Below are positions 949 to 28,763 of a DNA stretch of 64,000 nt, in pieces. This DNA comes from an uncultured Candidatus Saccharibacteria bacterium (lineage in GTDB: Bacteria; Patescibacteriota; Minisyncoccia; UBA6257; 1-14-0-10-44-23): the NCBI GenBank assembly GCA_964394435.1, contig CAYMXN010000001.1, positions 170,428 through 234,427 of the forward strand, written 5' to 3'. Position 1 is the stretch's first letter. Every line of letters starts with the position of its first letter. The notes below the pieces were generated by a model. It was not told where the DNA came from, made no database searches, and was given only the letters and a program-made list of their open reading frames with translations. Both the position numbers and the translations under genes were made by a program.

Positions 949-953
949 TAGTC

Positions 954-984
954 AAAAAAAACCGCGTTATGCGGTTTTTTGTTT
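954..984 (+). terminator. Intrinsic terminator after glyQS (A-run, aaccgc-gttat-gcggtt hairpin, T-run); could act in both directions
   Basis: A hairpin with a 6-bp GC-rich stem is flanked by an A-run and a T-run, as seen in the sequence. Confidence 0.55.
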
Positions 985-1036
985 GACATAGTTCGTATCC
1001 ATTTGGTTTACTGCTGATAGTTCTTGGAGGTGAGTC

Positions 1037-1333
1037 ATGAGTGATCTCAACGAGAGGCGGCGGTTACGCGAAGGTCGGCAACTTGCTTTGAGTGCGGAGT
1101 TGCTTGCTGGGCGAGCAGAGATTGACGCGCTGCTTGTGCAGAGGGCGTCACTTCCTATGGGTGAAATTGATCGACTCATTCGGCTTGTGCGAACGCAGAT
1201 TGACCAAATGAGCGCTTGCTACGGCGTGCGACTAACCCCTGCACGAGCGGCGGAGTCCAACGAGAGCGAGCTTGATTTCCTCATGAGCGAGCTGGGTGCT
1301 CTCGAGGAGATGATTCTGTCTCTTCCGTCTTGA
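1037..1333 (+). CDS. Hypothetical protein in a GC-rich island
   Basis: A strong SD (ggaggtgagtc) precedes the ATG. Local GC is well above the flanking housekeeping genes. No recognisable domain. Confidence 0.45.
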   Translation: MSDLNERRRLREGRQLALSAELLAGRAEIDALLVQRASLPMGEIDRLIRLVRTQIDQMSACYGVRLTPARAAESNESELDFLMSELGALEEMILSLPS

Positions 1334-1441
1334 GTCTTTCCCGCACTGGCGATAGCTGGTGCGGGGATTTTTTATGTATGCGTGATTTGAAATCTAGCGC
1401 TTACTTCCTTATCATTAGTTTAGTTCCTTAGGAGAAGAGTC

Positions 1442-1663
1442 ATGGATGAGTCAATTCGCAGTCAGTTTGCTCGACGAGGCGAGCTGTCTCCTGTCGAGCT
1501 CGCAGATCTCGAGGCTCGGATCAGGGAAGCGCTTCGTGCAAGGCGAGGGCGTTTTGGTGGGATTTCGGGAAATGGCGGAGGTGCCATCACAGTTCTTGAG
1601 CGCCTCTATTACGATCTCCTTTCTACTGAGACGGTTAAGAGGAATGCTGGGCGATTTTTTTAG
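1442..1663 (+). CDS. Hypothetical small protein in a GC-rich island
   Basis: An SD (ggagaagagtc) precedes the ATG. The overlapping frame 1446..1730 is less convincing. No domain recognised. Confidence 0.35.
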   Translation: MDESIRSQFARRGELSPVELADLEARIREALRARRGRFGGISGNGGGAITVLERLYYDLLSTETVKRNAGRFF

Positions 1664-1704
1664 TGCACGCGCTTTTCTCAATAATCATCTTCTGGAGGTA
1701 AGCG

Positions 1705-2118
1705 ATGCGGCCGAAAATTCCGGTGGTTGATGGATTGAGCTGTGCGATTTCGAGGCTCGTTTATCTCGTCGCAGGCCTTCTTGAAGAACATTTCAAGAAG
1801 CTCAAGCTGGTTTCTCCTTATGACTATGCCGGGTTCGACTTGGAGGTGGTTGATCGCGAGGAGGCGTATGTAGCTCTGAAGATACGCCCGCGAGGATGGG
1901 GAGAGGTTGCTGAAATCTATGCGACCTTTCATCGTCAGAATCGGCATGGGAAATACTGGAGCTGGTCTTTCGGTGGGGGGAGGGTTCTCGCTCCCGGAGC
2001 TTGTGGATGGCTCTCCTTTGAGCCGATGCGAGATGCTGCTACCGGAAAGATAATTCTCGGGAAGGTTGTTTCGCCGGCGCAGAAGGTTCCGCTTACAACT
2101 GCGGATATCCCGGTTTAG
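1705..2118 (+). CDS. Hypothetical protein in a GC-rich island
   Basis: An SD (ggaggtaagcg) precedes the ATG. 137 aa. No domain recognised. Confidence 0.45.
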   Translation: MRPKIPVVDGLSCAISRLVYLVAGLLEEHFKKLKLVSPYDYAGFDLEVVDREEAYVALKIRPRGWGEVAEIYATFHRQNRHGKYWSWSFGGGRVLAPGACGWLSFEPMRDAATGKIILGKVVSPAQKVPLTTADIPV

Positions 2119-2213
2119 CGTGTGTCTTGAAAATTGATTGTTTTGCCCCGAGGGTCTGACTCTCGGGGCGCTATCTTTTTAAAAATGCAATTTACGTTTA
2201 TACTCACATCTAT

Positions 2214-3485
2214 ATGAAACCATTTTCGAAAATGACACTGCCGAACGGCCTGAAGATTATTACGGTTCCGCAGGCTGGTGCGGTAGCGATGACTGTGCTG
2301 ACACTAGTTGAGTGTGGGAGTAAGTATGAGGAGAAGCGGATTAATGGTATCTCGCACTTTTTAGAGCACCTATGTTTTAAGGGTACGACGAATCGTCCTA
2401 AGCCGAGTATGATTGCGGGTGAGCTAGATGGCCTTGGTGCGCAGTCAAACGCATTTACGAGTCATGAGTATACCGGTTATTACGCCAAGGTGAGTGCGGA
2501 TAAGGGAGAAAAGGCTTTGGAGATTATTGCGGATTTATATATGAATCCGATTTTTGATGCTGATGAGATTGAGCGTGAAAAGGGTGTGATTATTGAAGAG
2601 ATTAATATGTACGAGGATATGCCTCAACGGAAGATTGGTGATTACTTTATGTCGCTTTTATATGGAGACCAGCCGGCCGGTTGGGATATTGCCGGTGAGC
2701 GCGAGCTTATCAAGAAGATGATGCGTGAGGATATTGTGAAATATCGGAGTCAGCACTATTTACCGGCTGCCACTACGTTGGTTATTGCTGGCGGTTTTGA
2801 TGAGCAAAAGATTATTGCGCGGGCTCAAGAGTTATTTGGGACGATGGCCGGAGGCGTTAAGGCGGGTAAGGTGGCGGTTAAGGAAAGCCAGAGTGAGCCG
2901 GCGGTATTTTTGAAATACAAGAAATCTGATCAGGCACATATTGTACTTGGTGTTCGGGCGTTTGATTTGAGCGATGATCGTCGTTATGTGATTGAGGTCT
3001 TGGGCGATATTTTAGGAGGCGGTATGAGCTCGAGGTTGTTCCAGTTGCTCCGAGAAAAGTACGGCGCAGCGTATTACGTCCGCGCGGGAGCTGATTTGTA
3101 TACGGACCATGGTTATTTTGCCGCATCAGCTGGACTTGAGCTTTCCAAGGCCCAGATGGTAATTAGTGAGATCTTGAAAGAGTTCAAGCGTCTGACGACT
3201 GAACTTGTTTCTCCGGAAGAGCTGGCGCGCGCAAAGAGCCATATGATTGGCAACTTACTTTTAGGCTTGGAGGGTTCGGACGACTTGGCGGTATTTTATG
3301 GAACACAGGAAGTGCTTCGTCATACTGTTATGACGACTGATGATTTGATTGCGGCGGTTAACAAGGTGACCGCGGAAGAGATTCGTGATTTGGCGAAATT
3401 CTTATTTGTGAAAGAAAAATTAAACTTGGCGATTATCGGCCCGTACGAGCAGGTGGATGAGTTTAAGAAGTTGCTCGTGCTCTAG
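2214..3485 (+). CDS. M16 family zinc metallopeptidase (insulinase/pitrilysin-like)
   Basis: Carries the inverted zinc motif HFLEH near the N-terminus. 423 aa, typical of M16 peptidases. Confidence 0.85.
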   Translation: MKPFSKMTLPNGLKIITVPQAGAVAMTVLTLVECGSKYEEKRINGISHFLEHLCFKGTTNRPKPSMIAGELDGLGAQSNAFTSHEYTGYYAKVSADKGEKALEIIADLYMNPIFDADEIEREKGVIIEEINMYEDMPQRKIGDYFMSLLYGDQPAGWDIAGERELIKKMMREDIVKYRSQHYLPAATTLVIAGGFDEQKIIARAQELFGTMAGGVKAGKVAVKESQSEPAVFLKYKKSDQAHIVLGVRAFDLSDDRRYVIEVLGDILGGGMSSRLFQLLREKYGAAYYVRAGADLYTDHGYFAASAGLELSKAQMVISEILKEFKRLTTELVSPEELARAKSHMIGNLLLGLEGSDDLAVFYGTQEVLRHTVMTTDDLIAAVNKVTAEEIRDLAKFLFVKEKLNLAIIGPYEQVDEFKKLLVL

Positions 3486-3546
3486 GAGATTGTAAGAACA
3501 TTTTTCGCGTGGTATTTTTTCATTGGCACATTGAGTTGCTAGTAAT

Positions 3547-3867
3547 TTGGCTAGCACGAAAGGAGTGATTATGAGTATTTGTGGTTGGGTGGCGAATGAT
3601 CCCGATCCTGACTCCGATATTGAGCCCAGCCTTGAAGCAGTTGAGCTTGCGACCGTGCAGTATCGGGTTGCGTATGAACCACACCGGGCGCGGCAGCTTT
3701 GCTCTCTAATTAGTAGCCGCATACAGGCTTTTGCGAGGCGTTATCCCCAAATTGCGATGCCTGGCGGTAAGGGCCTCGAGAATCCTTTTTTGGCGATCTC
3801 CTTGCTTGCGCAGCTCGAGCAGAAGATTCGTGATATGCACGATTGGGGCTGGCTTTTGGCGGGGTAG
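3547..3867 (+). CDS. Hypothetical protein (GC-rich ORFan)
   Basis: A strong SD (aaaggagtgatt) precedes the ATG. GC-rich. No domain recognised. Confidence 0.4.
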   Translation: MASTKGVIMSICGWVANDPDPDSDIEPSLEAVELATVQYRVAYEPHRARQLCSLISSRIQAFARRYPQIAMPGGKGLENPFLAISLLAQLEQKIRDMHDWGWLLAG

Positions 3868-3960
3868 TCCAACGGGTGGCGTCATATATTTGACTGTCAC
3901 CCGTTTTCTTTTTCGTATTGTGTAAGGTACAATACAAATAGTTTATTAATACGTAGTGCA

Positions 3961-4992
3961 ATGGAGGCAAAAGAATTTTCAATAAGTTGGGGTTCACTGT
4001 GGCGCATCGTCGCTATGGTGAGCTTGGTTGGTATCTTGTATGCATCAAGCTCTATCTTGGTGGCACTTTTTGTTGCGATTATTGTTTCTGCGGCGCTTGA
4101 TCCGTTTGTAAGTTGGTTGGAGAAAAAACGCATCCCGCGTATCTTGGGTACTTTGGCGATTTATATCATCGCTATTTTCGGCATCGCCTTAGTGATTTAT
4201 ATCGTTGTTCCGATTTTTCTCGTCCAGCTTAATAGTTTATTGAGTAATTCGGGTGACGTCGTAGGTAGTTTCTTTGGTTCGTTTAATGCGAGCTCTTCGC
4301 AGATTTTGGCGCAGATTAACGGATATGTAGATGAGCTGACGGCGACACTTTTGAGTGGAAAAATTACGCTGCTTAATATTGTGGCGAAGTTTCTTGGTGG
4401 ATTTATTCTCACCGTAGTTGTCTTTGTCCTTTCATTTTATCTGACGGTTGGGCGCGATGGGGTTGAGAAGTTTTTGATTGCCGTGTTGCCGTATAATACG
4501 CAACCGCGCGTGCTCGATATTTACGAGCGAGTCCGAGTAAAGATTAGTCGATGGTTTATTGGACAGATGTTTTTAAGTTTGATTGTTGGTATCGCCGTAT
4601 TTATCGGACTTTCGATTCTTGGCGTAAAATACAGTCTTTTACTTGGTGTAGTCGCCGGATTGTTTGAGATTATTCCATATGTCGGGCCGATTTTTTCCGG
4701 TGGCTTGGCGATTTTATTTGCGCTCACTACGTCGCCGACGCTTGGATTGTATACGCTCCTTTTGTTCGTTGCGATTCAGCAGCTTGAGAGTCATTTGCTG
4801 ATTCCTCAAGTTATTGGGTATACGACTAACCTAAGTCCGGTGGTTGTACTTGTGGCACTTCTGATTGGTGGGCAGGTATTGGGAATTGTCGGTGTACTTA
4901 TCTCGGTGCCTTCGGCGGTGTTGTTCCAAGAGATTCTGCGTGCGTGGTCTGGGTCGCATGCGCATACGCGCCCACTTGATAGCGCGGTCTAG
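3961..4992 (+). CDS. AI-2E family transporter (UPF0118/PerM-like membrane protein)
   Basis: Multi-pass membrane protein with a conserved AI-2E core (GQMFLSLIVG...LFEIIPYVGPIFSGGLAILFAL). Confidence 0.8.
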   Translation: MEAKEFSISWGSLWRIVAMVSLVGILYASSSILVALFVAIIVSAALDPFVSWLEKKRIPRILGTLAIYIIAIFGIALVIYIVVPIFLVQLNSLLSNSGDVVGSFFGSFNASSSQILAQINGYVDELTATLLSGKITLLNIVAKFLGGFILTVVVFVLSFYLTVGRDGVEKFLIAVLPYNTQPRVLDIYERVRVKISRWFIGQMFLSLIVGIAVFIGLSILGVKYSLLLGVVAGLFEIIPYVGPIFSGGLAILFALTTSPTLGLYTLLLFVAIQQLESHLLIPQVIGYTTNLSPVVVLVALLIGGQVLGIVGVLISVPSAVLFQEILRAWSGSHAHTRPLDSAV

Positions 4993-5027
4993 GCGGTTTA
5001 TAGTTGTCTGCGAAACTATCTAATTCT

Positions 5028-6476
5028 ATGAAATTTTATCTGACTGCAGCGATTCCATATGTAAATGCGAAGCCGCACATCGGGCATGCGCAGGAGCTTG
5101 TTCAGGGTGATGTTATTGCCCGTTTTCGCAAATCGCTTGGCGATGATGTTTCATACATTACCGGTTCTGATGAAAACTCGCTTAAAATTGTTCAGGCGGC
5201 GGAAAAAGAAGGATTGTCTGCTGATCAACTTGCTGTTAAATACGGAAAATCGTTTCAGGATTTAATTGCGGCGCTTCATATCAGCATTGATGTGTTTCAG
5301 CGCTCGAGTGCGGCTAATAACGCTGCGTCTGCTCAAGAGTTGTGGAAGCGCTGCGAGGCGAATGGTGATATTTATAAGAAAACATATAAAGGGTTGTACT
5401 GTGTTGGTTGTGAAGCGTTTTATACCCTTGATGAGCTTAATGAAAAGGGTGAGTGTTTTGAACATCCAGGTAAAAAGCTCGATGAGGTTGAAGAGGAAAA
5501 CTATTTCTTTAAACTTTCCCGCTATCAAGCAATGCTTGAGGATTTAATCACTTCTGGGACGTATGCTATTTCTCCGGCGTTTCGTAAAAATGAGGCGCTT
5601 GGATTTATCAAGCAGGGCCTTCAGGATTTTTCAATTTCACGTAGTAAAGAGCGAGCAAAGGGTTGGGGTGTCCCGGTGCCGGGCGATGAGAGTCAGATTA
5701 TGTATGTTTGGTTTGATGCGCTCAATGTCTATCGTTCGGCGATGCCTGATAAGTGGCCAGCTGATTTGCATATTATCGGTAAGGGCATTTTCCGTTTCCA
5801 TGCTATTTATTGGCCGGCTATTTTATTGTCTGCGCGACTTCCGCTTCCTAAGAAGTTATTTGTGCATGGATATTTTACGGTGAATGGACAGAAGATGAGC
5901 AAGACGCTTGGCAATGTGGTTGATCCGATGGAACTTATCGTGAAGTATGGTTCTGATGCGGTTCGCTATTTCTTGCTTCGCGAGATTCCGTCTGATGGTG
6001 ATGGAGATTTTAGCGAAGAGAAGTTTAAGATTCGTTATAATGCTGATCTTGCAAATGGTATTGGTAATTTTGCGGCGCGTGTTCTAACGCTCGCTCAAAC
6101 GTTTGGTGCGCTATCGTTTGATTTTGAGCAAAAAATCGAAATTGAAACGCTTAAGGCGATCGAGGCTGCGAATGCCGAGGTGCCAAAGTGTATTGGTGAG
6201 CTAGATTTCTATAACGCTTTGTTGGCGATTTGGAAGCTGATTGGATATGGCGATGGATACGTAAATGCTAAGAAGCCATGGGAGTTGCCAGCGGGATCTC
6301 CTGAACAGGGGGCGGCGCTCGTCAGTTTACTCTATATTTTATACACTGCTTCGAGTTTGTTGATGCCGTTTTTGCCAGAGACTGCTGTAAAAATTCAGGC
6401 GTGTATTGCTATCGATAAAGAAAAGAAAGAGTATCGTTGTTCAAAGCCAAGCGCGTCTCTTTTCCCGCGATTGTAA
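5028..6476 (+). CDS. metG: Methionyl-tRNA synthetase (short form, no C-terminal tRNA-binding domain)
   Basis: HIGH-type motif (PHIGHA) and KMSKT motif are present. The likely start is the ATG at 5028 (MKFYLTAAIPYVN) rather than the ORF-track TTG at 5004. Confidence 0.9.
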   Translation: MKFYLTAAIPYVNAKPHIGHAQELVQGDVIARFRKSLGDDVSYITGSDENSLKIVQAAEKEGLSADQLAVKYGKSFQDLIAALHISIDVFQRSSAANNAASAQELWKRCEANGDIYKKTYKGLYCVGCEAFYTLDELNEKGECFEHPGKKLDEVEEENYFFKLSRYQAMLEDLITSGTYAISPAFRKNEALGFIKQGLQDFSISRSKERAKGWGVPVPGDESQIMYVWFDALNVYRSAMPDKWPADLHIIGKGIFRFHAIYWPAILLSARLPLPKKLFVHGYFTVNGQKMSKTLGNVVDPMELIVKYGSDAVRYFLLREIPSDGDGDFSEEKFKIRYNADLANGIGNFAARVLTLAQTFGALSFDFEQKIEIETLKAIEAANAEVPKCIGELDFYNALLAIWKLIGYGDGYVNAKKPWELPAGSPEQGAALVSLLYILYTASSLLMPFLPETAVKIQACIAIDKEKKEYRCSKPSASLFPRL

Positions 6477-6512
6477 ACAAAAATGAGTCCAACATGGATT
6501 CATTTTTGTTTT
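6477..6512 (+). terminator. Intrinsic terminator after metG
   Basis: aaaaaatgagtcca-aca-tggattcattttt hairpin followed by gttttag. Confidence 0.55.
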
Positions 6513-6656
6513 AGAAATTAAAAGGGGGTCGACAACTCGCGTTGACGACCCCAGGCTTTCAGGGGAACTCCGGTTGGGAGGGTTGGCAGGAGGAACGTCG
6601 GGGGACGTTTCCGAAGCTCGACCCTGATTGGCCATATATCTATCATACCATTCTTT

Positions 6657-6905
6657 CCTAAAAAAACAACCGCGTCACATTGAAGTGAAGCGCGGTCATT
6701 GGGCTGTCCCGAGGGTGTGGGAGGGAGGAGGTTGCGGCTGCGTGCGTAGTCGTCGATGCACATGGGGTGCTGACGGGGTTGCGCGCCACTAACCTTAGTA
6801 CACTGGAGGAGCTTCGTGTCTGCTCCTAAGATTGGTCAGTCTGGGAAGAAGTCGCCCGGACTGGATCTTTGTTTTTCCCTACCCACACCTGGGAGGTAAT
6901 GTATA
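6657..6905 (-). ncRNA. Candidate structured small RNA (about 250 nt) with a long 5'/3' closing helix; class unknown, 6S-like architecture is possible
   Basis: No credible ORF. GC-rich. Strong minus-strand intrinsic terminator (accgcg..tcac/gtga..cgcggt hairpin plus U-run at 6657-6700). The 5' segment cccaggtgtgggtaggg can pair with the 3' segment ccctcccacaccctcggg. A weak promoter-like TTGACG..AACAAT lies upstream. Confidence 0.25.
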
Positions 6906-6972
6906 TTGTTCTCTTTTTGAGTCTTTTCGTCAAGGGCTTGTGGATAACTCTAAAATTGCTAGTATTTAAGCT

Positions 6973-7815
6973 ATGTTTGATGCGCATACGCACGTTCACT
7001 TTCCCGCTTTTGATGCTGACAGGCCAGAAGTGATGAAACGTGCTCAAAAAGAAGGAATTAAAATGATTACGGTTGGTACTCAGCTCTCCACTTCTCGTGG
7101 GGCGATTGAGTTTGCGCGAAAATATCCGGGCGAGGTTTGGGCGACGGTCGGATTTCATCCCGGACACGTTGGTAGTGCTGAAACGTGGCATCATGATGCC
7201 AAGGAGCAGAAAGAGTCTGTCAAAGAGTCGTTTGATGCCGATGCGTTTGCAGAGCTTGCTGACGACGAGCGAGTGGTTGCGATTGGCGAGTGTGGTCTCG
7301 ACTACTATCGTTTTGACGGATTGACCGAACGACAAGTGATGCTTTTAAAAGAAGAGCAGAAAAATGTGTTTATCGCCCAGGCGCAAATTGCCTTAAGTGT
7401 TGGGAAGGCGCTGATGATTCACTGTCGACCCTCGAAAGGAACGGATGACGCGTATGAAGACTTACTTTCTATATTATCGGCTCCGATTTATGCGCCGCTG
7501 AAAAAAGTGCTGCATTTTTATGTTGGTTCATCGGCGATGACGAAGAAATTTGTTGATGCTGGTTTTTATTTTACCTTTGGTGGCGTTATCACCTTTAGTA
7601 GAGATTATGATGCAACAATTGCGGTGATTCCGATGGATAGGATATTAATGGAGACTGATGCGCCATATGTGGCGCCAATGCCGTACCGAGGCAAGCGAAA
7701 CGAACCATCTTTTGTTGTTGAGTCAGCTAAAAAAATGGCGGAGCTCAAGGGGGTTAGCTATAATGAGATGGAGCGAATTACTGAAGAGAACACTAAACAT
7801 GTTTTTAGCATTTAA
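6973..7815 (+). CDS. tatD: TatD family metal-dependent hydrolase (deoxyribonuclease)
   Basis: N-terminal MFDAHTHVHF histidine cluster and overall TatD length and pattern. Confidence 0.85.
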   Translation: MFDAHTHVHFPAFDADRPEVMKRAQKEGIKMITVGTQLSTSRGAIEFARKYPGEVWATVGFHPGHVGSAETWHHDAKEQKESVKESFDADAFAELADDERVVAIGECGLDYYRFDGLTERQVMLLKEEQKNVFIAQAQIALSVGKALMIHCRPSKGTDDAYEDLLSILSAPIYAPLKKVLHFYVGSSAMTKKFVDAGFYFTFGGVITFSRDYDATIAVIPMDRILMETDAPYVAPMPYRGKRNEPSFVVESAKKMAELKGVSYNEMERITEENTKHVFSI

Positions 7816-12172: not shown

Positions 12173-15205
<3,033 letters not shown>

Positions 15206-15371
15206 TACATATTTTTTCTGGTCTTATATGAGCACACACTTAAGAGTGTTCATATGAGATACGGAATTCTAAACTGATCATTCAAGTACTTCATCAAACA
15301 AGTACTTGTACCAATACCCCTAGAGCGCTTCAAACGCTCGTCTGAAAAACCCGTAATTGTCTTTAAGGGTT

Positions 15372-20748: not shown

Positions 20749-22179
20749 ATGAGTACTAACGATCAATCTGGTAAGCCAATTCGTGTCCGTATGGCGCCAT
20801 CGCCAACGGGTAGTTTGCATATCGGTGGAGTGCGTACGGCGCTTTATAATATGCTGTTTGCTCGTAAACTTGGTGGTACGTTTATTTTACGTATCGAAGA
20901 TACTGATGCGGAGCGTTCGACTAAGGCGTTTGAACAGGAGATTTTGGATAGTTTCGCCTGGTCGGGGATTGTGTTTGATGAGGGCGTGATGCCGGATGGT
21001 TCTGAAAAAGGTGCGTATGGTCCGTATCGCCAAACCGAGTGCTTAGACTCATACGAAAAGCATTTAGCTCGTATTCTTGAAGAAGGTAAGGCGTATTATT
21101 GTTTTTGCTCAAAGGAAGAGCTCGAGGCGCAGGCGGCTGATGGTCCAGCTGAAGGCGTTGCTCCAAAGTATAGCGGAAAGTGTAGCTCGACTAGTTTGGC
21201 GGATGCGCAGGCGCGCATTGCTGGTGGTGAGGCTCCAGTTATCCGCTTAAAGGTGCCGGCGGAGAAAGTTGTTTTTACAGACTTGATTCGCGGTGAAGTT
21301 GTTTTTGATAACGCGCTGATTGGCGATATCGTAATTGCGAAAGGACTTCGTCAGCCACTTTATAATTTCGCGGTAGTTATTGATGACGCGACGATGCAGA
21401 TTAGTCATGTGATTCGTGGTGAGGAACATCTCGCAAACACGCCAAAGCAAATCGCTATTGCGCAGGCGCTTGGACTTTCGTCGCCACAGTTTGCCCATTT
21501 ACCGATTATTTTGAGTGCGACCGGAAAGGGGAAGATGAGTAAGCGTGATGGTGGTACTACGGTGCGCGAGTATAAAGAGGCCGGCTACTTACCCGAAGCG
21601 TTGTTAAACTTTTTGGTTTTACTTGGGTGGCACCCAAGTGGCGACGAAGAAGTGATGACGCTTGAACAAATGGTTGCGCAGTTTTCACTCGAGCGTGTAC
21701 AGAAATCTGGTGCGAAATTTGATAAGGAAAAATTGAATTGGTTTAACAATCACTATTTGCGATTATTGAGTGATGAAACACTTGCGCAGCTTTCTGGTGC
21801 GCCGGCGAAGTTTGTGCCGCTTTTTAAAGAGCGTGCGAATACATTGATTGAGCTTGGCGTGATGGCGAAGGAGCTTATGACTGTGCCGGAGTATCCAGCG
21901 AGTTTATTAGTCTGGCGTAAGTCGGATGCGGCTGGGGCGAAGGTGTGTTTGACCGCAGCTCGAGCGGTTGTGGCTGGGCTTACCGATGGCATCGATGCCA
22001 GGGCCGTAGAAGGGGCGTTTAGTGGCCTTTTAGCTGAAAAGGGCAAGGGTGATGTACTTTGGCCACTCCGAGTGGCTTTATCGGGTAAAGAGGCCTCTCC
22101 GGGGCCATTTGACCTGATTGTGGCCCTTGGAAAGGCCGAGGCGCTGACCCGGATTGATGCTGGTTTAGCCAAGTTGTAG
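20749..22179 (+). CDS. gltX: Glutamyl-tRNA synthetase (probably non-discriminating, since gatCA is present)
   Basis: HIGH motif (SLHIGGVRTA) and KMSKR motif. Confidence 0.92.
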   Translation: MSTNDQSGKPIRVRMAPSPTGSLHIGGVRTALYNMLFARKLGGTFILRIEDTDAERSTKAFEQEILDSFAWSGIVFDEGVMPDGSEKGAYGPYRQTECLDSYEKHLARILEEGKAYYCFCSKEELEAQAADGPAEGVAPKYSGKCSSTSLADAQARIAGGEAPVIRLKVPAEKVVFTDLIRGEVVFDNALIGDIVIAKGLRQPLYNFAVVIDDATMQISHVIRGEEHLANTPKQIAIAQALGLSSPQFAHLPIILSATGKGKMSKRDGGTTVREYKEAGYLPEALLNFLVLLGWHPSGDEEVMTLEQMVAQFSLERVQKSGAKFDKEKLNWFNNHYLRLLSDETLAQLSGAPAKFVPLFKERANTLIELGVMAKELMTVPEYPASLLVWRKSDAAGAKVCLTAARAVVAGLTDGIDARAVEGAFSGLLAEKGKGDVLWPLRVALSGKEASPGPFDLIVALGKAEALTRIDAGLAKL

Positions 22180-22200
22180 CTCATTTTAAACCTATTACCA

Positions 22201-23475
22201 ATGAAGAAGTTTTCTCATCTTTCGACTGGACTTCTCACGGTGCTCTTGGGCGCCCAACTTATCGTTGGTAATTTTGCGTATGCGGCGGATGTTGATCAAC
22301 TCAAGAGTGCGATTGATCAAAAGGCCAGAGAACTTGAGGCGGTTAATAAGCAACTCGAGGCGACTCAAGATGTACTTGAAGATGTACAGGTGCGCGGAAA
22401 AACACTCAATCAAGAGATTAAACGAATTGATACGAGCTTGAGCCAGGTTGATTTAAGTATTAAGGCTTCGGAAATTAAGATTAGCAAGACCGCGCTCGAG
22501 ATTCAGTCTTTAAATAATTCGATCACTGAAAAAGAGTCGGCGATCGCACTGCGGCGTGATGCGGTTGGACGCTTGCTTCAGCAATTTCAAGAGCGCGATG
22601 GCGAAAGTCTCTTGAGCTTGTTTTTAAAAAATATGAGCTTGTCGCAGAACTTAGCGGAAACTGAAACGATTGATACGCTTAACGATACGCTGCTTGATGA
22701 TGTTTCGACTATTCGACAGCTTAAAGACGATTTGAATCAGCGACTTCAGGATGTGAGTGATAAGAAGAAGTCGATTGAGGCGGAAAATCAAAACTTGAAG
22801 GTAAAGAAGTCGATCGCGGTTGAGCAAAAAGCAGACAAGCAGTCGCTGCTTTCGCAAACCAAAAATCAGGAAAAAGCGTATCAGCAGGTTGTGAGCGAGC
22901 TTGAGAAAAAACAGGCGGAGATTAGTTCGGAAATTGATACGATTGAGCAGCAGCTGCGTGCGAATTTTGACTCAAGCATATTGCCGCTTAAGCGTTCGGG
23001 GGTGTTTGGCAGTCCGGTTGTTAAGGGAGTGATTACCCAGCTCTATGGTTCGACTGCGTTCGCGCAAAAAGCGTATCGCTCAAAGTTTCATAACGGTATC
23101 GACTTTGGTGTAGGCGTTGGTACCCCGATTTATGCTGCCGAAGATGGCAGGATTTTGTCTGCCGGAAATAACGGCAAGGTACAGTATGGAAAGTATATTT
23201 TAGTTAAACATAACAACAATTTGGCGACGCTATACGCCCATCTTTCACGCCAAATGGTCAGCACAGGGGATATCGTGACGAGGGGACAGCTTATTGGGTA
23301 TTCGGGCAATACCGGCTACTCGTTTGGTGCGCACTTACACTTTACCGCGTATTACGAGCCGCCATCGTGTGAGATCGCTCGTACAAATCGTAAGGATTGT
23401 ATTCAACTTCAATCGATTCCAGGGGCTGGGCTTGTCCCAGTTGGTATTACCATCGACCCTGGACAATATCTTTAA
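22201..23475 (+). CDS. Secreted M23 family peptidase with an N-terminal coiled coil (EnvC-like)
   Basis: Signal peptide, long coiled-coil region and C-terminal LytM motifs (HNGIDFG...GNTGYSFGAHLHF). Confidence 0.85.
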   Translation: MKKFSHLSTGLLTVLLGAQLIVGNFAYAADVDQLKSAIDQKARELEAVNKQLEATQDVLEDVQVRGKTLNQEIKRIDTSLSQVDLSIKASEIKISKTALEIQSLNNSITEKESAIALRRDAVGRLLQQFQERDGESLLSLFLKNMSLSQNLAETETIDTLNDTLLDDVSTIRQLKDDLNQRLQDVSDKKKSIEAENQNLKVKKSIAVEQKADKQSLLSQTKNQEKAYQQVVSELEKKQAEISSEIDTIEQQLRANFDSSILPLKRSGVFGSPVVKGVITQLYGSTAFAQKAYRSKFHNGIDFGVGVGTPIYAAEDGRILSAGNNGKVQYGKYILVKHNNNLATLYAHLSRQMVSTGDIVTRGQLIGYSGNTGYSFGAHLHFTAYYEPPSCEIARTNRKDCIQLQSIPGAGLVPVGITIDPGQYL

Positions 23476-23481
23476 AACATT

Positions 23482-23802
23482 ATGAAACAATTTTTGATTG
23501 TCGGGCTGGTTTTGGTGAGTTTCTTGAGCACGCAAGTAAGTTTTGCGGCGTTTGACGTTTCTGGTTCGCAGTCGCTCGATACGATTAAAAATGCGTTTGA
23601 GTTTGCCAAGCAAAATAGTTCGACGATTGATACCGCACTTTCAGTTGCCAGCACTGCTACGGATGTGGCGAGTAAAACCGACTCGTGGTTTGACACCCAC
23701 GGAATCGATATCAAGGCTATCTTAAAAGCGATTGGGACGGCGTTTGTCTGGGTGGCGAAACTAGTTATCCACGTCGTTGAGTATCTTGTATCGAAATTGT
23801 AG
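23482..23802 (+). CDS. Small secreted or membrane-anchored hypothetical protein
   Basis: Signal peptide (MKQFLIVGLVLVSFLSTQVSFA) and a hydrophobic C-terminus. Confidence 0.5.
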   Translation: MKQFLIVGLVLVSFLSTQVSFAAFDVSGSQSLDTIKNAFEFAKQNSSTIDTALSVASTATDVASKTDSWFDTHGIDIKAILKAIGTAFVWVAKLVIHVVEYLVSKL

Positions 23803-23819
23803 TGGATTTATACTCTTAG

Positions 23820-24175
23820 TAGGTCTACAGAGTCTTGCGCGTCTATCCTGGGCTGGTCACCCCCGGGGCTTCCGAAACCTTTACTCCGGTATTTGTCGGG
23901 AGGCGCCTATGCGACACATATCACTTCTCCAGACTCCGACTTCGGCGTTGTAGCCGAACCGGAAGGAGGTGATCTGATATCGGTCGAGAACTCAATGGCT
24001 GCCGTGAGGCACCCGGAGAGCCTCGATGCTTGTGGTCGTCGCAGAGTTAGAGTTTGCTGACCAACCAAAAACTGTCCGGGAAAGGATAGCGCGCAGATTC
24101 TTAAAAGTCAGAGGGAGGAGATTTGGGCGGAGTGCGATGACAAACCGTTGTTGCGACCGCCCATTTTAATTTAGA
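23820..24175 (+). ncRNA. Candidate GC-rich noncoding transcript (about 350 nt)
   Basis: Promoter-like TTGTAT-N17-TATACT at 23778-23813. No ORF. Weak terminator-like hairpin gggcgg...ccgccc plus attttaattt near 24126-24175. Confidence 0.2.
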
Positions 24176-24202
24176 GGTTGAGGGAGGGTTCTAGTTGTTC
24201 CT

Positions 24203-24229
24203 ATTATATATGTCGTAAAGCATCATTTG
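24203..24229 (+). repeat. Copy 1 of a 27-bp direct repeat or regulatory motif, CTATTATATATGTCGTAAA(gc)ATCATT
   Basis: Exact 19-mer plus ATCATT shared with 25928-25952. Lies about 60 bp upstream of the small ORF and PIN gene. Confidence 0.6.
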
Positions 24230-24287
24230 GGCGTTTTTATCAAGGGCGGAGAGGAAACTCCTTAATCATGTGATATACTTATTTCAA

Positions 24288-24443
24288 ATGGGGATTACTA
24301 AGAGTGATGAGAAAAAACCTTCGCATCCTTCAAATGAAAGACCTGCTTTTTATTGGGATGCAGAGTTAAAGAAGGCCGCTGAAGGTCTTAAGGAAATTTT
24401 TGAAAAGGAACGTAACGACCGTGCTGAAGGATCTAAAAAATAA
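24288..24443 (+). CDS. Small charged ORF (51 aa) overlapping the PIN gene start; possible antitoxin-like partner
   Basis: ATG-initiated and K/E-rich. Its 3' end overlaps the start of the PIN ORF by 44 nt. Below the length cut-off of the ORF track. Confidence 0.25.
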   Translation: MGITKSDEKKPSHPSNERPAFYWDAELKKAAEGLKEIFEKERNDRAEGSKK

Positions 24444-24984
24444 GTATCTTATTTTAGATACAAACATCATTATCAATGGTGTTGAGCATAAGGATAGACT
24501 ATTTCCTTTTTTTGATGAGTTGAGGGAACATAATATCGCTCCAGTAATTAGTGATGTGATTCTTTATGAGTTTCTTTGTGGGTCCAAGGAACCAGATCAT
24601 TTAAAAAAGAAGATCAATTTTATTGAGTTACTTCTCGGCGGTAAGAATCATAAGAATAGGATTAGCCTCCCGATAGATCATAAAATCTTTGAAACTGCAC
24701 GCAAAATTCAAAATGTTTATGGCTCACGAGGCGTCTCCTCTAAGCAGATTGGAATAGTTGATTCTATTATTGCAGCCCAGATGCAAAGATTTAGTAAGGG
24801 AGAAAGTGAGATTATTTTTTTAGCAACTTGTGATAATAATGATTTTCCTTTGATTTTTGATCGCATAGGTATTAAAACCTATGACCTAGGTAAAGAGATT
24901 CTTAATATTGGCATTTATTCTTTTAACCAAAAAAAGTATACTACTTTAGTTGAAGGTTTTGAGTCTGAGCCGTTTACTAGTTAA
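24400..24984 (+). CDS. PIN-domain nuclease (TTG start as annotated; 194 aa with a C-terminal extension)
   Basis: PIN acidic quartet context: LILDTN, VILYEF, GIVDSII, ATCDNNDF. Confidence 0.7.
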   Translation: MKRNVTTVLKDLKNKYLILDTNIIINGVEHKDRLFPFFDELREHNIAPVISDVILYEFLCGSKEPDHLKKKINFIELLLGGKNHKNRISLPIDHKIFETARKIQNVYGSRGVSSKQIGIVDSIIAAQMQRFSKGESEIIFLATCDNNDFPLIFDRIGIKTYDLGKEILNIGIYSFNQKKYTTLVEGFESEPFTS

Positions 24985-25016
24985 GGACTGCATCTGGCAA
25001 AAAGGATTAGAGAGAG

Positions 25017-25373
25017 GTGCTTGAGGTAGGAAAGGGCTTTACAAGCAAATTTTCGAGGTCTATCATGAGGCCAATGATGATTATTACTGCACCTTGCTGG
25101 CAGTGCGACAAGGATATGCTTGTTGCTCTTGTCGGAGATGATAATGGGAATATGGGCTATGGACCCGAAGATTTTAACCAGGAGGAAATAGCGCTTGCTA
25201 AAAAGAATGGAGTTCTCTTAAAGAAAATTGATAGTAAAACCGCGGAGGAAACTTATTTGGCTAATATATGTCCTGCGTGCGGAGCTTTTGTTGGCAAATG
25301 GTTTTACTTCGCTAACTACTATACGGAGGCTTTATATGATCGATTGAAATATCGTAGAATCGAGGACGTATAG
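25017..25373 (+). CDS. Zinc-ribbon protein (CWQC...CPAC), hypothetical
   Basis: GTG start with aaagga RBS; an alternative ATG lies at 25065. Two CxxC pairs. Confidence 0.5.
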   Translation: MLEVGKGFTSKFSRSIMRPMMIITAPCWQCDKDMLVALVGDDNGNMGYGPEDFNQEEIALAKKNGVLLKKIDSKTAEETYLANICPACGAFVGKWFYFANYYTEALYDRLKYRRIEDV

Positions 25374-25829
25374 TTTGACTTGGGTCATGGTGGTTTTCGT
25401 ATAGGACAAAGGGGAGAGTCGTTTATCGCGAGAAGAAGGGGCTATAAACCCTTTATTTAAGCCTTTTTAGGGCGTTTTCAATATCTATAGATTTTTTCGC
25501 AAATTTGTGCTACCCTGTGATTGCCGTTTAGTTTTTAGGTAGAACTTCTGAAGCAGTTCATGCTAGCTAGCTGCTTCAGGGGCCTTTACTATTAACCATT
25601 ATGGCTTCCTGGATAAGATTCGTCGCCTTATTGATGGAAAGTTAAATATTGAATTAATGAAGAGCATTAATTCCGACGGTGAGTGGGTATATACTCGCTG
25701 CATAGTTCTTCGAAATGGCAGGAGGATTTGTAAGCCAATCGGCAAAGTCTTTCGATTTCGAAGATATGCTAAGGTCGTTATTAAAACACAAAACTCCTCA
25801 GATAAGGAGTTTGTGAGATAGCGATCTGA

Positions 25830-25880
25830 AAAAGAGGAGCCGCTTCCAGAGTTAAAAACGGGAGCGGTTTTTCTTTTCAT
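25830..25880 (+). terminator. Terminator-like hairpin (agccgcttcc...gggagcggtt) plus tttttctttt
   Basis: Seen in the sequence. Closes the PIN/zinc-ribbon unit, possibly with an intervening small ORF or RNA. Confidence 0.4.
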
Positions 25881-25927
25881 CGTTTATTATACTTTTTCGC
25901 GGACACTTGTCCAGTCTTGGCTATAGC

Positions 25928-25952
25928 TATTATATATGTCGTAAAATCATTG
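25928..25952 (+). repeat. Copy 2 of the 27-bp motif CTATTATATATGTCGTAAAATCATT
   Basis: Identical 19-mer plus ATCATT. Lies about 330 bp upstream of the PD-(D/E)xK nuclease gene. Confidence 0.6.
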
Positions 25953-26278
25953 TTGTGCGACAGATAGTATATCGGGAAAAGCCATCTCCCCTAGGGTTTT
26001 GAAATGGATAAAAAAGTTTTCTCATTGGCGCATTTTGAAATTATTTTTCTTTCCTGGTACGCTTATCTGGTCGACTGAATCTGTTCTGACTTCAAGTTGG
26101 GTTTCTGCTCGTCCGCGCGAGCTCTGGCCATAGCCCGGCTTTGTAGTCGCCCTGGCACCCCCCCCTGCTGGGTCAACGTCTTCCAAAAGCCTTGGATGAC
26201 CAGTCGACACTTTCAATCTCCGCGCACGTCAGTTTACTGATGGGCGCGGTTTTCATTTCTTTGCTACAATGGAGCGAT

Positions 26279-27070
26279 ATGTCGTTTTTTGATGAGTTTA
26301 AAGATGAGCGGGATTTTATGGCCCAAAACGGGTATGAAATTGATGGTAAGTGGTATCCGCGTGTCACTAAAATTGTAGAGATGAAAGCGAAGCCTTCCTT
26401 ATATGTGTTTTATGGTCAGGTTGGCTATTTCCAAGGTAAAGAGATTAGTCGTAAGTCTGCGGAGCACGGTACTGCGGTACACGAAGCGATTGAGAAGATT
26501 ATGGTTGGCCAGCGACCTGGTGATATGCCCGCTTCAATCGTTCCTTCGGTCCGCGCTTTTTTGGAATTTATTAAAACAAACAAAATTGAGGTTGATCCAA
26601 CGCATGTCGAGCGGCGCATTATGAATCCCGAACATCGTTACGCAGGTACGATTGATACCCTCGCTCGAATCAACGGAAAGTTTGGCGTACTTGATATTAA
26701 GACTTCAGAATCAGTGTATCGTGATTATAATATTCAGACTTCGGCGTATATGGACGCACTTACGCGTGAGTTTAGTGATTTAACGGCCCGTTGGATACTG
26801 CGAATCGATCAAACGCAGACCTGTAAGCGCTGTGGTTCTGTTTTACGAACTAAAGGTGGGAGAGATAAGGTCAAGAAGAGTGGAATTAAATCCCCCGCTG
26901 GCAACGTGCAGGCGTGTCCGGAGTATGCGCATGATTGGGATATTATGAAGGGCGTGATTGAACTTAAAGAGATCGAGACTCCGTGGCAAGAAGATTTTCA
27001 GGCGTTTTTGGGAGCGAAAAAACTTTGGGAGTGGGAACACGCTGATTGGCTGAAAAAGATTGGGTACTAG
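26279..27070 (+). CDS. PD-(D/E)xK nuclease of RecB/Cas4-like type with a C-terminal Cys cluster
   Basis: Motifs GTIDTL...VLDIKTS (D...D-x-K) then YNIQTSAY (QxxxY). C-terminal CKRCGS...C. SD ggag precedes the ATG at 26279; the ORF track extends to 26192. Confidence 0.6.
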   Translation: MSFFDEFKDERDFMAQNGYEIDGKWYPRVTKIVEMKAKPSLYVFYGQVGYFQGKEISRKSAEHGTAVHEAIEKIMVGQRPGDMPASIVPSVRAFLEFIKTNKIEVDPTHVERRIMNPEHRYAGTIDTLARINGKFGVLDIKTSESVYRDYNIQTSAYMDALTREFSDLTARWILRIDQTQTCKRCGSVLRTKGGRDKVKKSGIKSPAGNVQACPEYAHDWDIMKGVIELKEIETPWQEDFQAFLGAKKLWEWEHADWLKKIGY

Positions 27071-27187
27071 TGGTGTATTTGTAGGTCAGTTACCCTAGTT
27101 TGCGGATTGACTTTATTATATAAATTCAGTACTATAATTAGCTGTCCTGAAGCGCTCTTTAACACATGAAAGGAGCTGATTTTCATT

Positions 27188-28045
27188 ATGGAATCAGCTA
27201 ACCAATTCGATCAATTGAACCCGAACTGCTCTGCTTCTCGGCGAGCCCGCGCAGCTTTGCGCAAGATCGACAAGGAGCGTGGAGATGATACCGAGCGACG
27301 AGTGTTCGCAGCGTTTGCAAGCGACGATGATTGGTTTGTGCCGCGATGGTATAGCGCCATTGCTCGTGCAACCCCGAGCGAAGATAGTCAGGGTATTGAT
27401 TTCATCATTTACCGCACGATTGAGCCTTCTGAACTTTTCGTGCAAGTGAAGAGCTCTGATCGTGGGCGCGAAGAGTTTCAAGCTCGTAGAGAGCTGATTC
27501 CCACTCAACAGCGCCTTCCGATTGGCGTGACGGTTATCCGGAGGAGTGACTCTTCGGACGTAATTAGGCGCAAGGTGCTTGCTGCTGCCGGGGAGTCGTT
27601 GCGGCTCAAGCTTGCGTTCGCTGATTCGGCTACGCCCGAACCGGTTGTGCTGTCTGGGTCAAATCGCCTCATCCGGCAACGGTTGAATATCAACGAGTCT
27701 TTGATTTCGCACGCCGAACTCTTGCAATTTGTATTACGTGTCATTGCTGCAATTCGGTCACGTAATTGCCAAGAGTTTCGCGTGCTTGATCGGCCGACGG
27801 ATTTTTCAGTTTCCCTGGGTATCGGTCTAATCTTCGTTACCCAGCGTAACGGAAGGTTTCTTGTTCGACAGATATTAGGCGAAGATGAACTATCCGCGCT
27901 TCGAAGCCCTGCTGCTGGGCGCCTCGTTCAAATCCTTGCCGATCGCTTCATCGGTGAGGCGCAAATCAGGCATCAGCGCAGGCTTAGTAAGGATTTGCGC
28001 AGGTTCCAGAGTTACCTTAGGCGTACCGCGCCCAAGGCCGATTAG
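27188..28045 (+). CDS. Hypothetical protein (GC-rich ORFan, 285 aa)
   Basis: Strong RBS aaaggagctg. About 55% GC. No domain recognised. Confidence 0.5.
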   Translation: MESANQFDQLNPNCSASRRARAALRKIDKERGDDTERRVFAAFASDDDWFVPRWYSAIARATPSEDSQGIDFIIYRTIEPSELFVQVKSSDRGREEFQARRELIPTQQRLPIGVTVIRRSDSSDVIRRKVLAAAGESLRLKLAFADSATPEPVVLSGSNRLIRQRLNINESLISHAELLQFVLRVIAAIRSRNCQEFRVLDRPTDFSVSLGIGLIFVTQRNGRFLVRQILGEDELSALRSPAAGRLVQILADRFIGEAQIRHQRRLSKDLRRFQSYLRRTAPKAD

Positions 28046-28106
28046 TTTGTTAGGGGGGTGATGTTGTTTGCGAGTAATCGCAGCGATGTCGCCCCTTTTT
28101 TATTTT

Positions 28107-28763
28107 CTATTCAACGAGCTCACTAAAGATTACGAGGCGCTCATTGTAGCGCTTAACTGTCGAGTTCCACGTACCATTGCACGTGATTAAATTCAGTTTT
28201 CGTTTATCGGTTTTTCCAAAAATCTCATTGAGATTAGTCGAGTGTTCGTCGTAAATTTTTTTATCAGTTACGCGGAAATGTAGCGTTTTTCCATTTTCAT
28301 TTACATAAATATCATCGCCGACTGCGAGTTGGTGTAGGTTGCGAAATACGCCTGGTGTCCACCAGTACGTATCTAAATGGCCGGCCATAACCGCGTTGCC
28401 TACCTCGCCAGGCTTGGTCCCACGATTAAACCAGCCAACATCGGTATAGTTGTCTGGAATGCCCATATTTCCCTTCGAGGTTAGTCCTACGCTTTGGATA
28501 TTCGTGTTGATCGCGAGCTTTGGAATAACTAATGTGCTCCCCTCCCCAATCGGCTTATTGGCTGGCGCGATGACTGGTTGAGTTTGTGTATTTGTAATTG
28601 GAAGCGGGACCGTTGCGGTGCCGGTTGCTTGGGTTGTTTGCTGAAGTGCTGGCTGTTGAATTTCGATCTCATCCGGCGTTCCGCCCGTGGTGTACCAAAA
28701 GAGTGCGACTACCAGGTAGGCAATCACAAAACCTAGGACGAGTTTTTCGCCACGGGTATACAT
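28107..28763 (-). CDS. Sortase (transpeptidase) with N-terminal membrane anchor
   Basis: Catalytic TLxTC-type motif NLITCNG. The His-containing region AGHLD is present. Confidence 0.8.
   Translation of the reverse strand: MYTRGEKLVLGFVIAYLVVALFWYTTGGTPDEIEIQQPALQQTTQATGTATVPLPITNTQTQPVIAPANKPIGEGSTLVIPKLAINTNIQSVGLTSKGNMGIPDNYTDVGWFNRGTKPGEVGNAVMAGHLDTYWWTPGVFRNLHQLAVGDDIYVNENGKTLHFRVTDKKIYDEHSTNLNEIFGKTDKRKLNLITCNGTWNSTVKRYNERLVIFSELVE

Follow-up and report, generated by a model that had tools for sequence, protein, structure and literature searches.

The dif site of bacterial chromosomes has been described as a sequence of about 28 bp in which two imperfect 11-bp inverted repeats flank a central region of 6-8 bp, the arm on the XerD side being better conserved and the centre more variable (PMC6449649). 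Inoviruses integrate at dif by means of the host recombinases XerC/D (PMC5666396), and dif modules are known to carry toxin-antitoxin (TA) pairs (PMC6449649). No published dif for the lineage considered here was found in the literature. Here, I examine a locus in a 64,000-nucleotide stretch of DNA (the window hereafter) from an uncultured Candidatus Saccharibacteria bacterium (contig CAYMXN010000001.1 of assembly GCA_964394435.1), in which a PIN-domain gene preceded by a small open reading frame (ORF), a zinc-ribbon gene, a PD-(D/E)xK nuclease gene and a gene for a 285-aa protein follow one another on the plus strand. The explanation that appears likely is that an integrase-less cassette with a PIN-type TA pair lies beside the chromosome's dif site, that the motif repeated at the locus consists of a dif-like site and of a degenerate version of it at the other end of the cassette, and that the four genes are separate from one another.

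An initial annotation, made from the letters alone, had seen in these genes a co-regulated module for defence or toxicity. Its ORFs, its residue motifs, the repeat that it pointed out and its suggestion of attL/attR-like ends stand, whereas its ideas of a module, of an operator and of a defence function are not supported. Related loci, 326 in all, were fetched for comparison and carry L-numbers, L012 being the closest genome; the comparison sets were 86 nuclease loci, 84 related genomes for the site counts, and 120 metagenome contigs picked by the site pattern alone. The features of the locus are collected in Table 1.

Table 1. Features of the locus, with positions in the window
Feature	Position	Strand	Remarks
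Strain-specific integrase-less cassette	24176-25936	+	1.76 kb, immediately left of the dif-like site; delimited by the blastn break against L012; low in G+C
Pseudo-site	24210-24237	+	with motif copy 1 (24201-24226); left arm ATGTCGTAAAG (24210-24220), centre CATCAT, degenerate right arm TTGGGCGTTTT
51-aa ORF, candidate antitoxin	24288-24443	+	overlaps the PIN start by 23 nt; called in public assemblies
PIN-domain protein, candidate VapC-like toxin	24421-24984	+	187 aa; Pfam PIN E 9e-9
Zinc-ribbon protein	25017-25373	+	118 aa from GTG 25017; 102 aa from ATG 25065
Hairpin-rich spacer, candidate structured transcript or single-strand element	25380-25885	+	506 nt, in the cassette; terminator-like hairpin 25834-25880 at its end
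Full dif-like site	25936-25963	+	ATGTCGTAAAA-TCATTG-TTGTGCGACAG, 11+6+11; weight-matrix score 41.1; only full site in 64 kb
PD-(D/E)xK exonuclease, MGME1/RecB-like, with a CxxC...H insertion	26279-27070	+	263 aa in the public gene calls
285-aa two-domain protein, fast-evolving accessory gene	27188-28045	+	N-terminal restriction-endonuclease-like motif E36...D71...Q86-x-K88
Right-arm-only match to the site	27861-27874	+	TTGTTCGACAGATA, 13/14; inside the 285-aa gene

A dif-like site between convergent genes

The initial annotation had drawn attention to a motif found upstream both of the PIN unit and of the nuclease gene. The repetition is real: an exact 19-mer occurs at 24201-24219 and again at 25927-25945, with about 0.01 such pairs expected by chance. 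Motif copy 2 (25927-25952) overlaps the left arm and the centre of an imperfect palindrome with a conserved left/right asymmetry and a fixed orientation, and its sequence recurs in L012 and in more distant relatives as TGTCGYAAAA-N6-TTGTGCGACA. A position weight matrix was built from 25 instances, sites scoring at least 10 being counted, and the consensus drawn from 53 sites reads CTGTCGYAAAA-GRTATA-TTGTGCGACAG. Exactly one site is present in 53 of the 84 related genomes, and a shuffled control of about 800 kb yielded none at a score of 8 or more. The information per position amounts to 1.32 bits in the left arm, 0.83 in the centre, of which there are at least 12 different versions, and 1.43 in the right arm; the model used to collect the set had been seeded on the right arm, and the difference in conservation between the arms is small. 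Full sites never occur twice at a locus in the 84 + 120 chromosomal loci, save for a concatemer (L128) and the hybrid copies at prophage ends, both described below. At the pseudo-site of the window, the left arm scores 14.3 (the third best left arm in the window) and the right arm -4.9, for a total of 1.8.

Among the loci selected by the nuclease, the ORFs to the left of the site are nearly all on one strand (125 plus, 8 minus), those to the right switch to the minus strand, and the GC skew passes from +0.07 to -0.02 across the site. The 120 contigs selected by the site pattern, oriented by the site's own asymmetry before counting, behave likewise, with 213 plus and 62 minus ORFs on the left against 71 plus and 222 minus on the right, and a mean GC skew of +0.037 on the left vs -0.034 on the right; in 114 of them the site is intergenic. 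The locus is a region of gene convergence, and a probable replication-terminus region, of a chromosome of the Parcubacteria/Paceibacteria type.

These observations also bear on a proposal of the initial annotation, namely that the motif might be a shared promoter or operator. In such a case, one palindrome-binding regulator (LexA- or NrdR-like, for example) would co-regulate the PIN unit and the nuclease, and in its favour the element shares with operators the form of an imperfect palindrome, a copy stands upstream of each unit, and the place of the site in viral contigs is between divergent genes, like that of the operators of phage switches. On the chromosomes, however, it lies between convergent gene blocks, once per locus, and it is independent of the nuclease, which is found downstream of it in only 3 of 61 site-selected metagenome loci (MurG, GltX or M23 genes often come before the site) and whose start lies at distances from -29 to -2300 nt. 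In the window itself, copy 1 is without a right arm and stands ~60-85 nt upstream of the likely promoter of the PIN unit, and a terminator-like hairpin recognised by eye (26220-26253) comes between the full site and the nuclease start. The conserved asymmetry of the site and the hybrid copies at prophages are features of recombination, not of operators. On balance, co-regulation of the two units through the motif is very unlikely.

Two specific regulators were considered. The core of the site may resemble an NrdR box, which would favour an operator; this reading was dropped because the genomic context argues against one. A LexA/SOS-box reading was rejected as well: the LexA motif of Patescibacteria is reported to be a direct repeat, and the convergent context speaks against any operator.

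In all likelihood, the palindrome at 25936-25963 represents the dif site of the chromosome, on which Xer proteins would act, because its geometry, its convergent polar position and its use by integrase-less elements match the descriptions of dif. With dif/XerCD systems the site of this lineage has in common the length of 28 bp, the inverted arms in an 11+6+11 arrangement, the variable 6-bp centre and one arm better conserved than the other; it is likewise found once per locus, in intergenic DNA, with fixed polarity and at a switch of gene orientation and GC skew. Its consensus also shares 15-16 of the 28 positions with the dif of E. coli and B. subtilis (reference sequences per PMC3025954). 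It differs in the sequence of the arms, CTGTCGYAAAA and TTGTGCGACAG.

The cassette and other mobile DNA at the site

Positions 24176-25936 are a strain-specific insert, because homology to L012 stops and resumes at its ends with three unrelated genes between: blastn against that genome aligns window positions 21070-24175 and 25937-27069 only, and the gap is the cassette. Its G+C content is ~0.35-0.41, vs ~0.47-0.53 in the flanks. In the window, 2459 nt separate the M23 gene from the site, against a median of 472 nt among 41 genomes, and in only 7 of these 41 does the slot between M23 gene and site exceed 1.5 kb. The cargo comprises the 51-aa ORF and the PIN gene, the zinc-ribbon gene, the hairpin-rich spacer and some doubtful small ORFs; none of the cassette ORFs matched a recombinase family in the protein family scans. 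The boundaries given by the two site copies and those given by the comparison with L012 agree within ~30 nt, and the homology break at 24175/25937, together with a degenerate and a full copy of a recombination-type site, supports the suggestion of the initial annotation that attL/attR-like repeats might flank a 1.7-kb cassette.

Related genomes carry larger elements at the same site. Eight loci have the following order: beyond the chromosomal FtsQ/MurG side come a full site, a Zot-like element of 5.1-5.9 kb and a hybrid site whose centre and right arm are common with the full site and whose left arm is unrelated. The Zot-like protein of the eight elements matches phrog_197 (E 2e-9) as well as Pfam Zot and REP_ORF2-G2P, and the elements can be regarded as candidate filamentous-phage prophages of candidate-phyla bacteria, of the kind known as integrative mobile elements exploiting Xer (IMEX). 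Beside the Zot-like ATPase they encode small proteins and membrane proteins, and no integrase; they are located in L256 (2223-7567), L281 (2191-7636), L313 (2058-7522), L316 (2168-8068), L319 (2055-7195) and L326 (1263-6542), and further in L277 and L217. Around the window cassette, the pseudo-site and the full site are direct repeats, both on the plus strand, and form the mirror image of the prophage cases. An arrangement like that of the window is found in L092, where a degenerate site (score 8.9), a ParA-like gene, orf69 and a PIN gene, and then a full site occupy the same slot after GltX-M23.

The same site is present in at least 120 viral contigs of IMG/VR, where the genes diverge from it, unlike in chromosomes. 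In many tailed-phage contigs (for example L294, L285, L288, L250, L226 and L299) it lies within ~100-200 nt of genes for a small or a large terminase subunit, and it may there be an attachment site for host Xer or have another role. Its abundance in viral DNA, often beside terminase genes, would suit the idea that the palindrome is the attB/attP of temperate elements with an integrase of their own and not a host dif. Yet of the 104 mid-sized ORFs located up to 2.5 kb from the site on viral contigs, a single one encodes an integrase (of the tyrosine type), and neither the Zot-type prophages nor the window cassette encode a recombinase; moreover, a 28-bp intergenic sequence kept at a fixed polar position in very divergent genomes needs a host function. 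An attachment site served by integrases of the elements themselves is unlikely, and a host dif is to be preferred.

A small element with a site of its own may be represented by L128 (JGI1221J13441_10002443), in which positions 768-7490 form a three-fold concatemer, perfect with 0 mismatches, whose unit is 2398 bp long (G+C 0.39). Each unit has one full site and encodes a 169-aa protein with a helix-turn-helix-like N-terminus and a 106-aa protein, with no ORF of the size of an integrase or a Rep protein; L128 probably represents a small circle that carries a dif-like site.

When set beside the described elements, the cassette resembles IMEX such as CTXphi and XacF1 in that it is integrase-less, lies exactly at the site and has one full and one hybrid or degenerate flanking copy, and in that Zot-encoding, filamentous-phage-like elements use the same site in related genomes. 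It differs from them in being only 1.76 kb long, without phage or replication genes, its cargo being a TA pair, a zinc-ribbon gene and the spacer. With the dif modules of Acinetobacter it shares the nature of a small, recombinase-less cassette that holds a TA pair and is bounded by Xer-type sites; those modules, however, are mainly plasmid-borne and bounded by inversely oriented full pdif sites, whereas the copies in the window are chromosomal direct repeats beside the main site, one of which amounts to a half-site.

Insertions are not confined to the left of the site. In a 75%-identical relative (L006 6091-7631 and L007 1230-2770), the interval between the site and the nuclease, right of the site, holds an integrase gene of the insertion-sequence type (rve) on the opposite strand together with a gene (N_methyl) for a type IV pilin-like protein, so that insertions accumulate on both of its sides.

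From these sequence comparisons I infer that Xer recombination was the route by which the cassette arrived. Chromosome dimers would be resolved at the 28-bp palindrome by one or more Xer tyrosine recombinases of the host, and a circular element whose own dif-like site combined a good left arm with a poor right one would have recombined with dif. The exchange would have left a hybrid pseudo-site on the left of the insert (24210-24237), composed of the chromosomal left arm and the degenerate right arm of the element, and would have reconstituted the full site on its right. The insert would bring with it a VapBC-like addiction pair (the 51-aa ORF and the PIN RNase), an orphan zinc-ribbon gene and a 0.5-kb hairpin-rich non-coding stretch, while the nuclease to the right of the site would be an unrelated MGME1/RecB-like exonuclease that adjoins dif in the clade, and the 285-aa gene a separate accessory.

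A number of observations weigh against this explanation. As regards the site, the GC skew of the window falls from ~+0.2 to ~0 with its sign unchanged; a single copy is seen per locus of 10-64 kb only, not per chromosome; the outer arm positions (GTCG/CGAC) are palindromic and conserved as much as the inner ones, whereas classical dif conserves the inner parts; of the 6 inner pairs used by Kono et al., only 3-4 are complementary; and no Xer recombinase or FtsK gene is among the ten window ORFs tested. As regards the cassette, no identical cassette was found in another context, and mobility is thus not demonstrated. There is no empty site among the contigs of the same strain, all of which are 100% identical. 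The centres of the two copies differ, so that excision is not expected, and the cassette of L012 has no recognisable pseudo-site. Lastly, the identity of the two copies runs on for 6 nt (CTATTA) past the extended arm, which a simple Xer crossover does not predict.

The last two points would rather favour a local duplication or unequal crossover as the source of the motif copies, the genes of the cassette having arrived by ordinary recombination in a variable, terminus-proximal islet without any part for Xer; the slot is, in addition, bounded by conserved DNA able to support homologous replacement. Two features speak against such an origin, namely that the identity of the copies breaks at the boundary between arm and centre, where exchange of the Xer type occurs, and that the succession of degenerate site, cargo and full site recurs in L092 and, as a mirror image, in the eight prophage loci. 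I hold an origin by local duplication to be rather unlikely, and Xer-mediated entry of the cassette at dif to be the better account.

What the locus offers is a sequence-level dif candidate for a large group of Parcubacteria/Paceibacteria within the Candidate Phyla Radiation, together with filamentous-phage-like prophages and a tiny TA cassette, all of them integrase-less, that sit at the dif-like site. If confirmed, the site would provide a landmark for the replication terminus in genomes that are mostly fragmentary and a means to find the prophages and mobile cassettes of these bacteria, and the exploitation of Xer by mobile elements would extend to a lineage with very reduced genomes.

The cargo of the cassette

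The PIN protein exceeds the Pfam PIN cut-off (36.4 bits vs 23.6) and has only two homologues among 5.8 billion clusters, one in the L092 locus, 53% identical to it, and one in the P0124 locus. The acidic quartet noted initially is borne out by both homologues, in which D13, E50, D114 and D138/D141 are invariant. So is the 51-aa ORF that overlaps the PIN start, since the 23-nt overlap is kept at both: the small ORF of L092, in the same overlap, is homologous to that of the window (39% identity, E 4e-10), and the P0124 locus has a 50-aa ORF in the same overlapping arrangement with its PIN gene. The 51-aa ORF has no match in the protein family libraries. Neither a zinc-ribbon gene nor a nuclease gene is present beside the two PIN homologues.

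The 51-aa ORF and the PIN gene form a plausible TA pair, with the candidate roles of antitoxin and toxin, and to this two-gene unit the term toxin module, which the initial annotation had extended to the whole block, may be applied; for the rest of the block it does not hold. The likeness to type II TA systems of the VapBC family lies in a PIN protein with four conserved acidic residues, a small overlapping ORF before it and the retention of the pair as a unit. The differences are that the 51-aa partner is without a match to known DNA-binding families of antitoxins, that the NCBIfam VapC model scores 17 vs a cut-off of 140, and that the window protein, at 187 aa, is longer than a typical VapC.

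The zinc-ribbon ORF has the predicted CxxC...CxxC pattern and reaches the threshold of no family in Pfam, PADLOC, NCBIfam or PHROGs; homologues were found neither in the 326 loci nor in phage records. Its gene is a conserved partner neither of PIN nor of the nuclease.

The spacer behind it had been described as holding nested palindromes and a terminator of its own; the palindromes are real. Relative to shuffled controls, the plus strand of 25380-25885 folds with a minimum free energy of -174.3 kcal/mol (z -6.33), vs -111.1 kcal/mol (z -2.61) for the minus strand, and a terminator-like hairpin closes it. No search run lent support to the possible 54-aa basic ORF suggested at 25657-25821, and the spacer has neither an Rfam match nor homologous DNA in other loci. 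One may conjecture that the cassette stands for a new class of Xer-dependent elements of candidate-phyla bacteria, minimal and with neither recombinase nor replicase, whose functional core would be the strongly structured spacer (for example as a regulatory RNA, as a single-strand origin or as an att substrate in folded form), with the PIN pair stabilising the insert; separately, the MGME1-like nuclease, which adjoins the dif-like site in hundreds of species, might act on this site or on integrating single-stranded elements. This is a speculation whose truth I consider rather doubtful.

The nuclease, the 285-aa gene and the surrounding window

The PD-(D/E)xK nuclease with a QxxxY motif was correctly recognised at the outset: H68/E69, D126, D139-x-K141 and Q153-xxx-Y157 are invariant in its family. 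More than 2000 homologues at 55-75% identity occur in Harrison-, Lipton-, Brenner- and other Parcubacteria, and the gene is carried by 466 species genomes. On long contigs the order FtsW-MurG-GltX-M23-small protein-gap-nuclease, followed by genes on the opposite strand, is maintained; the nuclease is a syntenic, vertically inherited core gene of the lineage and not cargo of the cassette. It matches the phage exonuclease family phrog_298 with E 9e-25. Its structure model (predicted local distance difference test, pLDDT, 86.9) finds in Foldseek human MGME1 as the best match in the PDB (E 5e-7), then RecE, Cas4 chains appearing at E >=8e-3. With MGME1/RecB-family exonucleases and phrog_298 it shares the fold and all catalytic motifs, including QxxxY; it differs from MGME1 in being 15-17% identical to it, in the CxxC...H insertion and in belonging to a bacterial, lineage-specific family.

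Cas4 proteins have four conserved Cys, one N-terminal and three C-terminal, which bind an Fe-S cluster. The initial annotation had reported a C-terminal Cys cluster of the Cas4 kind, and what is present is a CxxC (C182, C185) with an invariant His; 3 of 18 sequences lack a third Cys, and an N-terminal one is absent. The likeness to Cas4 consists in the PD-(D/E)xK core with QxxxY and a weak PADLOC match (E 1.7e-4). The differences are the lack of the four-Cys Fe-S arrangement and of any Pfam Cas4 match, and the context, with no cas1, cas2 or CRISPR array in the window and with GltX, M23 and sortase genes as neighbours in all loci inspected. Identification of the nuclease as Cas4 was rejected on its Cys pattern, its genomic context, and its family and structure matches.

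Probably the nuclease gene is transcribed from a promoter of its own and shielded from transcription that comes from upstream. The hairpin at 26220-26253, seen by eye, reads CCGCGC-N18-GCGCGG followed by TTTT; it lies ~25 nt upstream of the nuclease start, and TTGCTACAAT and GGAG come after it. The terminator scan did not list this hairpin, its loop being longer than 8 nt.

The 285-aa protein had been taken for an ORFan, which it is not: phmmer returned 143 matches, three of them full-length at 41-48% identity, and L012 has a positional orthologue. The relatives are mostly single-domain proteins of 115-150 aa. In the N-terminal domain the E...D...QxK motif is invariant, and this domain weakly matches DUF4365, RE_MjaI and Mrr_cat. 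Its identity with the 280-aa orthologue of L012 is 41%, vs 91-96% for the neighbouring genes, and the ribosome-binding region and start of the gene (window 27168-27199) are 94% identical between the two genomes. A second variable spot is apparent here, L012 5792-7261 corresponding to window 27070-28045, with ~600 bp extra in L012 that contain a 133-aa ORF on the minus strand. The right-arm match inside the gene has a right-arm score of 18.0, the second best in the window, with ~0.02 expected by chance (an estimate), and is absent from the orthologue in L012.

As to whether these genes belong together, homologues of PIN, the zinc-ribbon protein, orf57 and orf54 were found within 5 kb of the nuclease in none of the 86 nuclease loci, and a homologue of the 285-aa protein in one (L012). 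The four-gene co-regulated module proposed initially is thereby left unsupported, its proteins never being co-localised elsewhere. Scans with PADLOC, NCBIfam and PHROGs gave no system-level match, the only strong match being that of the nuclease to the phage exonuclease family. One might still argue for a new defence or toxin system in which the four genes and the small ORF act together, given that the genes are consecutive and on the same strand, that three of the four have nuclease-type motifs, and that PADLOC weakly matches CARF_PIN (1.2e-3) and Cas4 (1.7e-4), with no match for the zinc-ribbon and 285-aa proteins. Against this stand the lack of PIN and zinc-ribbon genes at the 86 nuclease loci, the two PIN homologues without zinc-ribbon gene and neighbouring nuclease, the core-gene pattern of the nuclease (466 species, fixed synteny, 55-75% identity), the exchange of PIN and zinc-ribbon genes for others in L012, which keeps the nuclease, and the want of a convincing PADLOC model match. 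A single system is extremely improbable. The four genes are most likely not one system and fall into three independent parts, namely the site with its cassette, the core nuclease and the accessory 285-aa gene; genes that adjoin on the same strand near a terminus need not form a functional module.

The window is cellular DNA, with 23S and 5S rRNA and tRNAs, and five public contigs of the same strain are 100% identical to it, as are all public copies of the locus; the same genes as the window ORFs are called in the public assemblies of the strain. The four consecutive plus-strand ORFs are as first described (Table 1), and the absence of a CRISPR array, of cas genes and of an integrase was confirmed, with no CRISPR-like array in the window and no cas or integrase gene among the ORFs tested. 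The claim that no housekeeping function was nearby proved wrong: FtsW, MurG, GltX and an M23 peptidase are encoded directly upstream and a sortase downstream, and the genes of the window switch strand at 28 kb. The 23S rRNA gene (12194-15207) has an insertion of ~80 nt relative to the bacterial model near 12500-12560 in the cmscan alignment, which I take to be typical of candidate-phyla bacteria.

The stretch 23815-24195 (plus strand) is ORF-less and G+C-rich (~0.53), ends in a terminator-like hairpin and is a candidate small RNA gene. Neither gathering thresholds over the whole window nor permissive scans (23700-28200, and L006, L008 and L010) gave an Rfam family in the region, and nhmmer with the G+C-rich 23803-24200 and with the leader 25963-26278 found matches in L012 only, without broad conservation. 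In L012 the stretch is conserved at about the level of the flanking coding DNA. The fold z-scores are -1.75 on the plus strand and -2.67 on the minus strand. A long closing helix joins 23830-23850 with 24085-24105, and its three differences from L012 keep the pairing through G.U, on the plus strand only. The stretch contains GGAAGGAGGUGAUC, the complement of the 16S 3' end, and in L006, L008 and L010 the same position is likewise taken up by a G+C-rich stretch that is free of ORFs and has a terminator.

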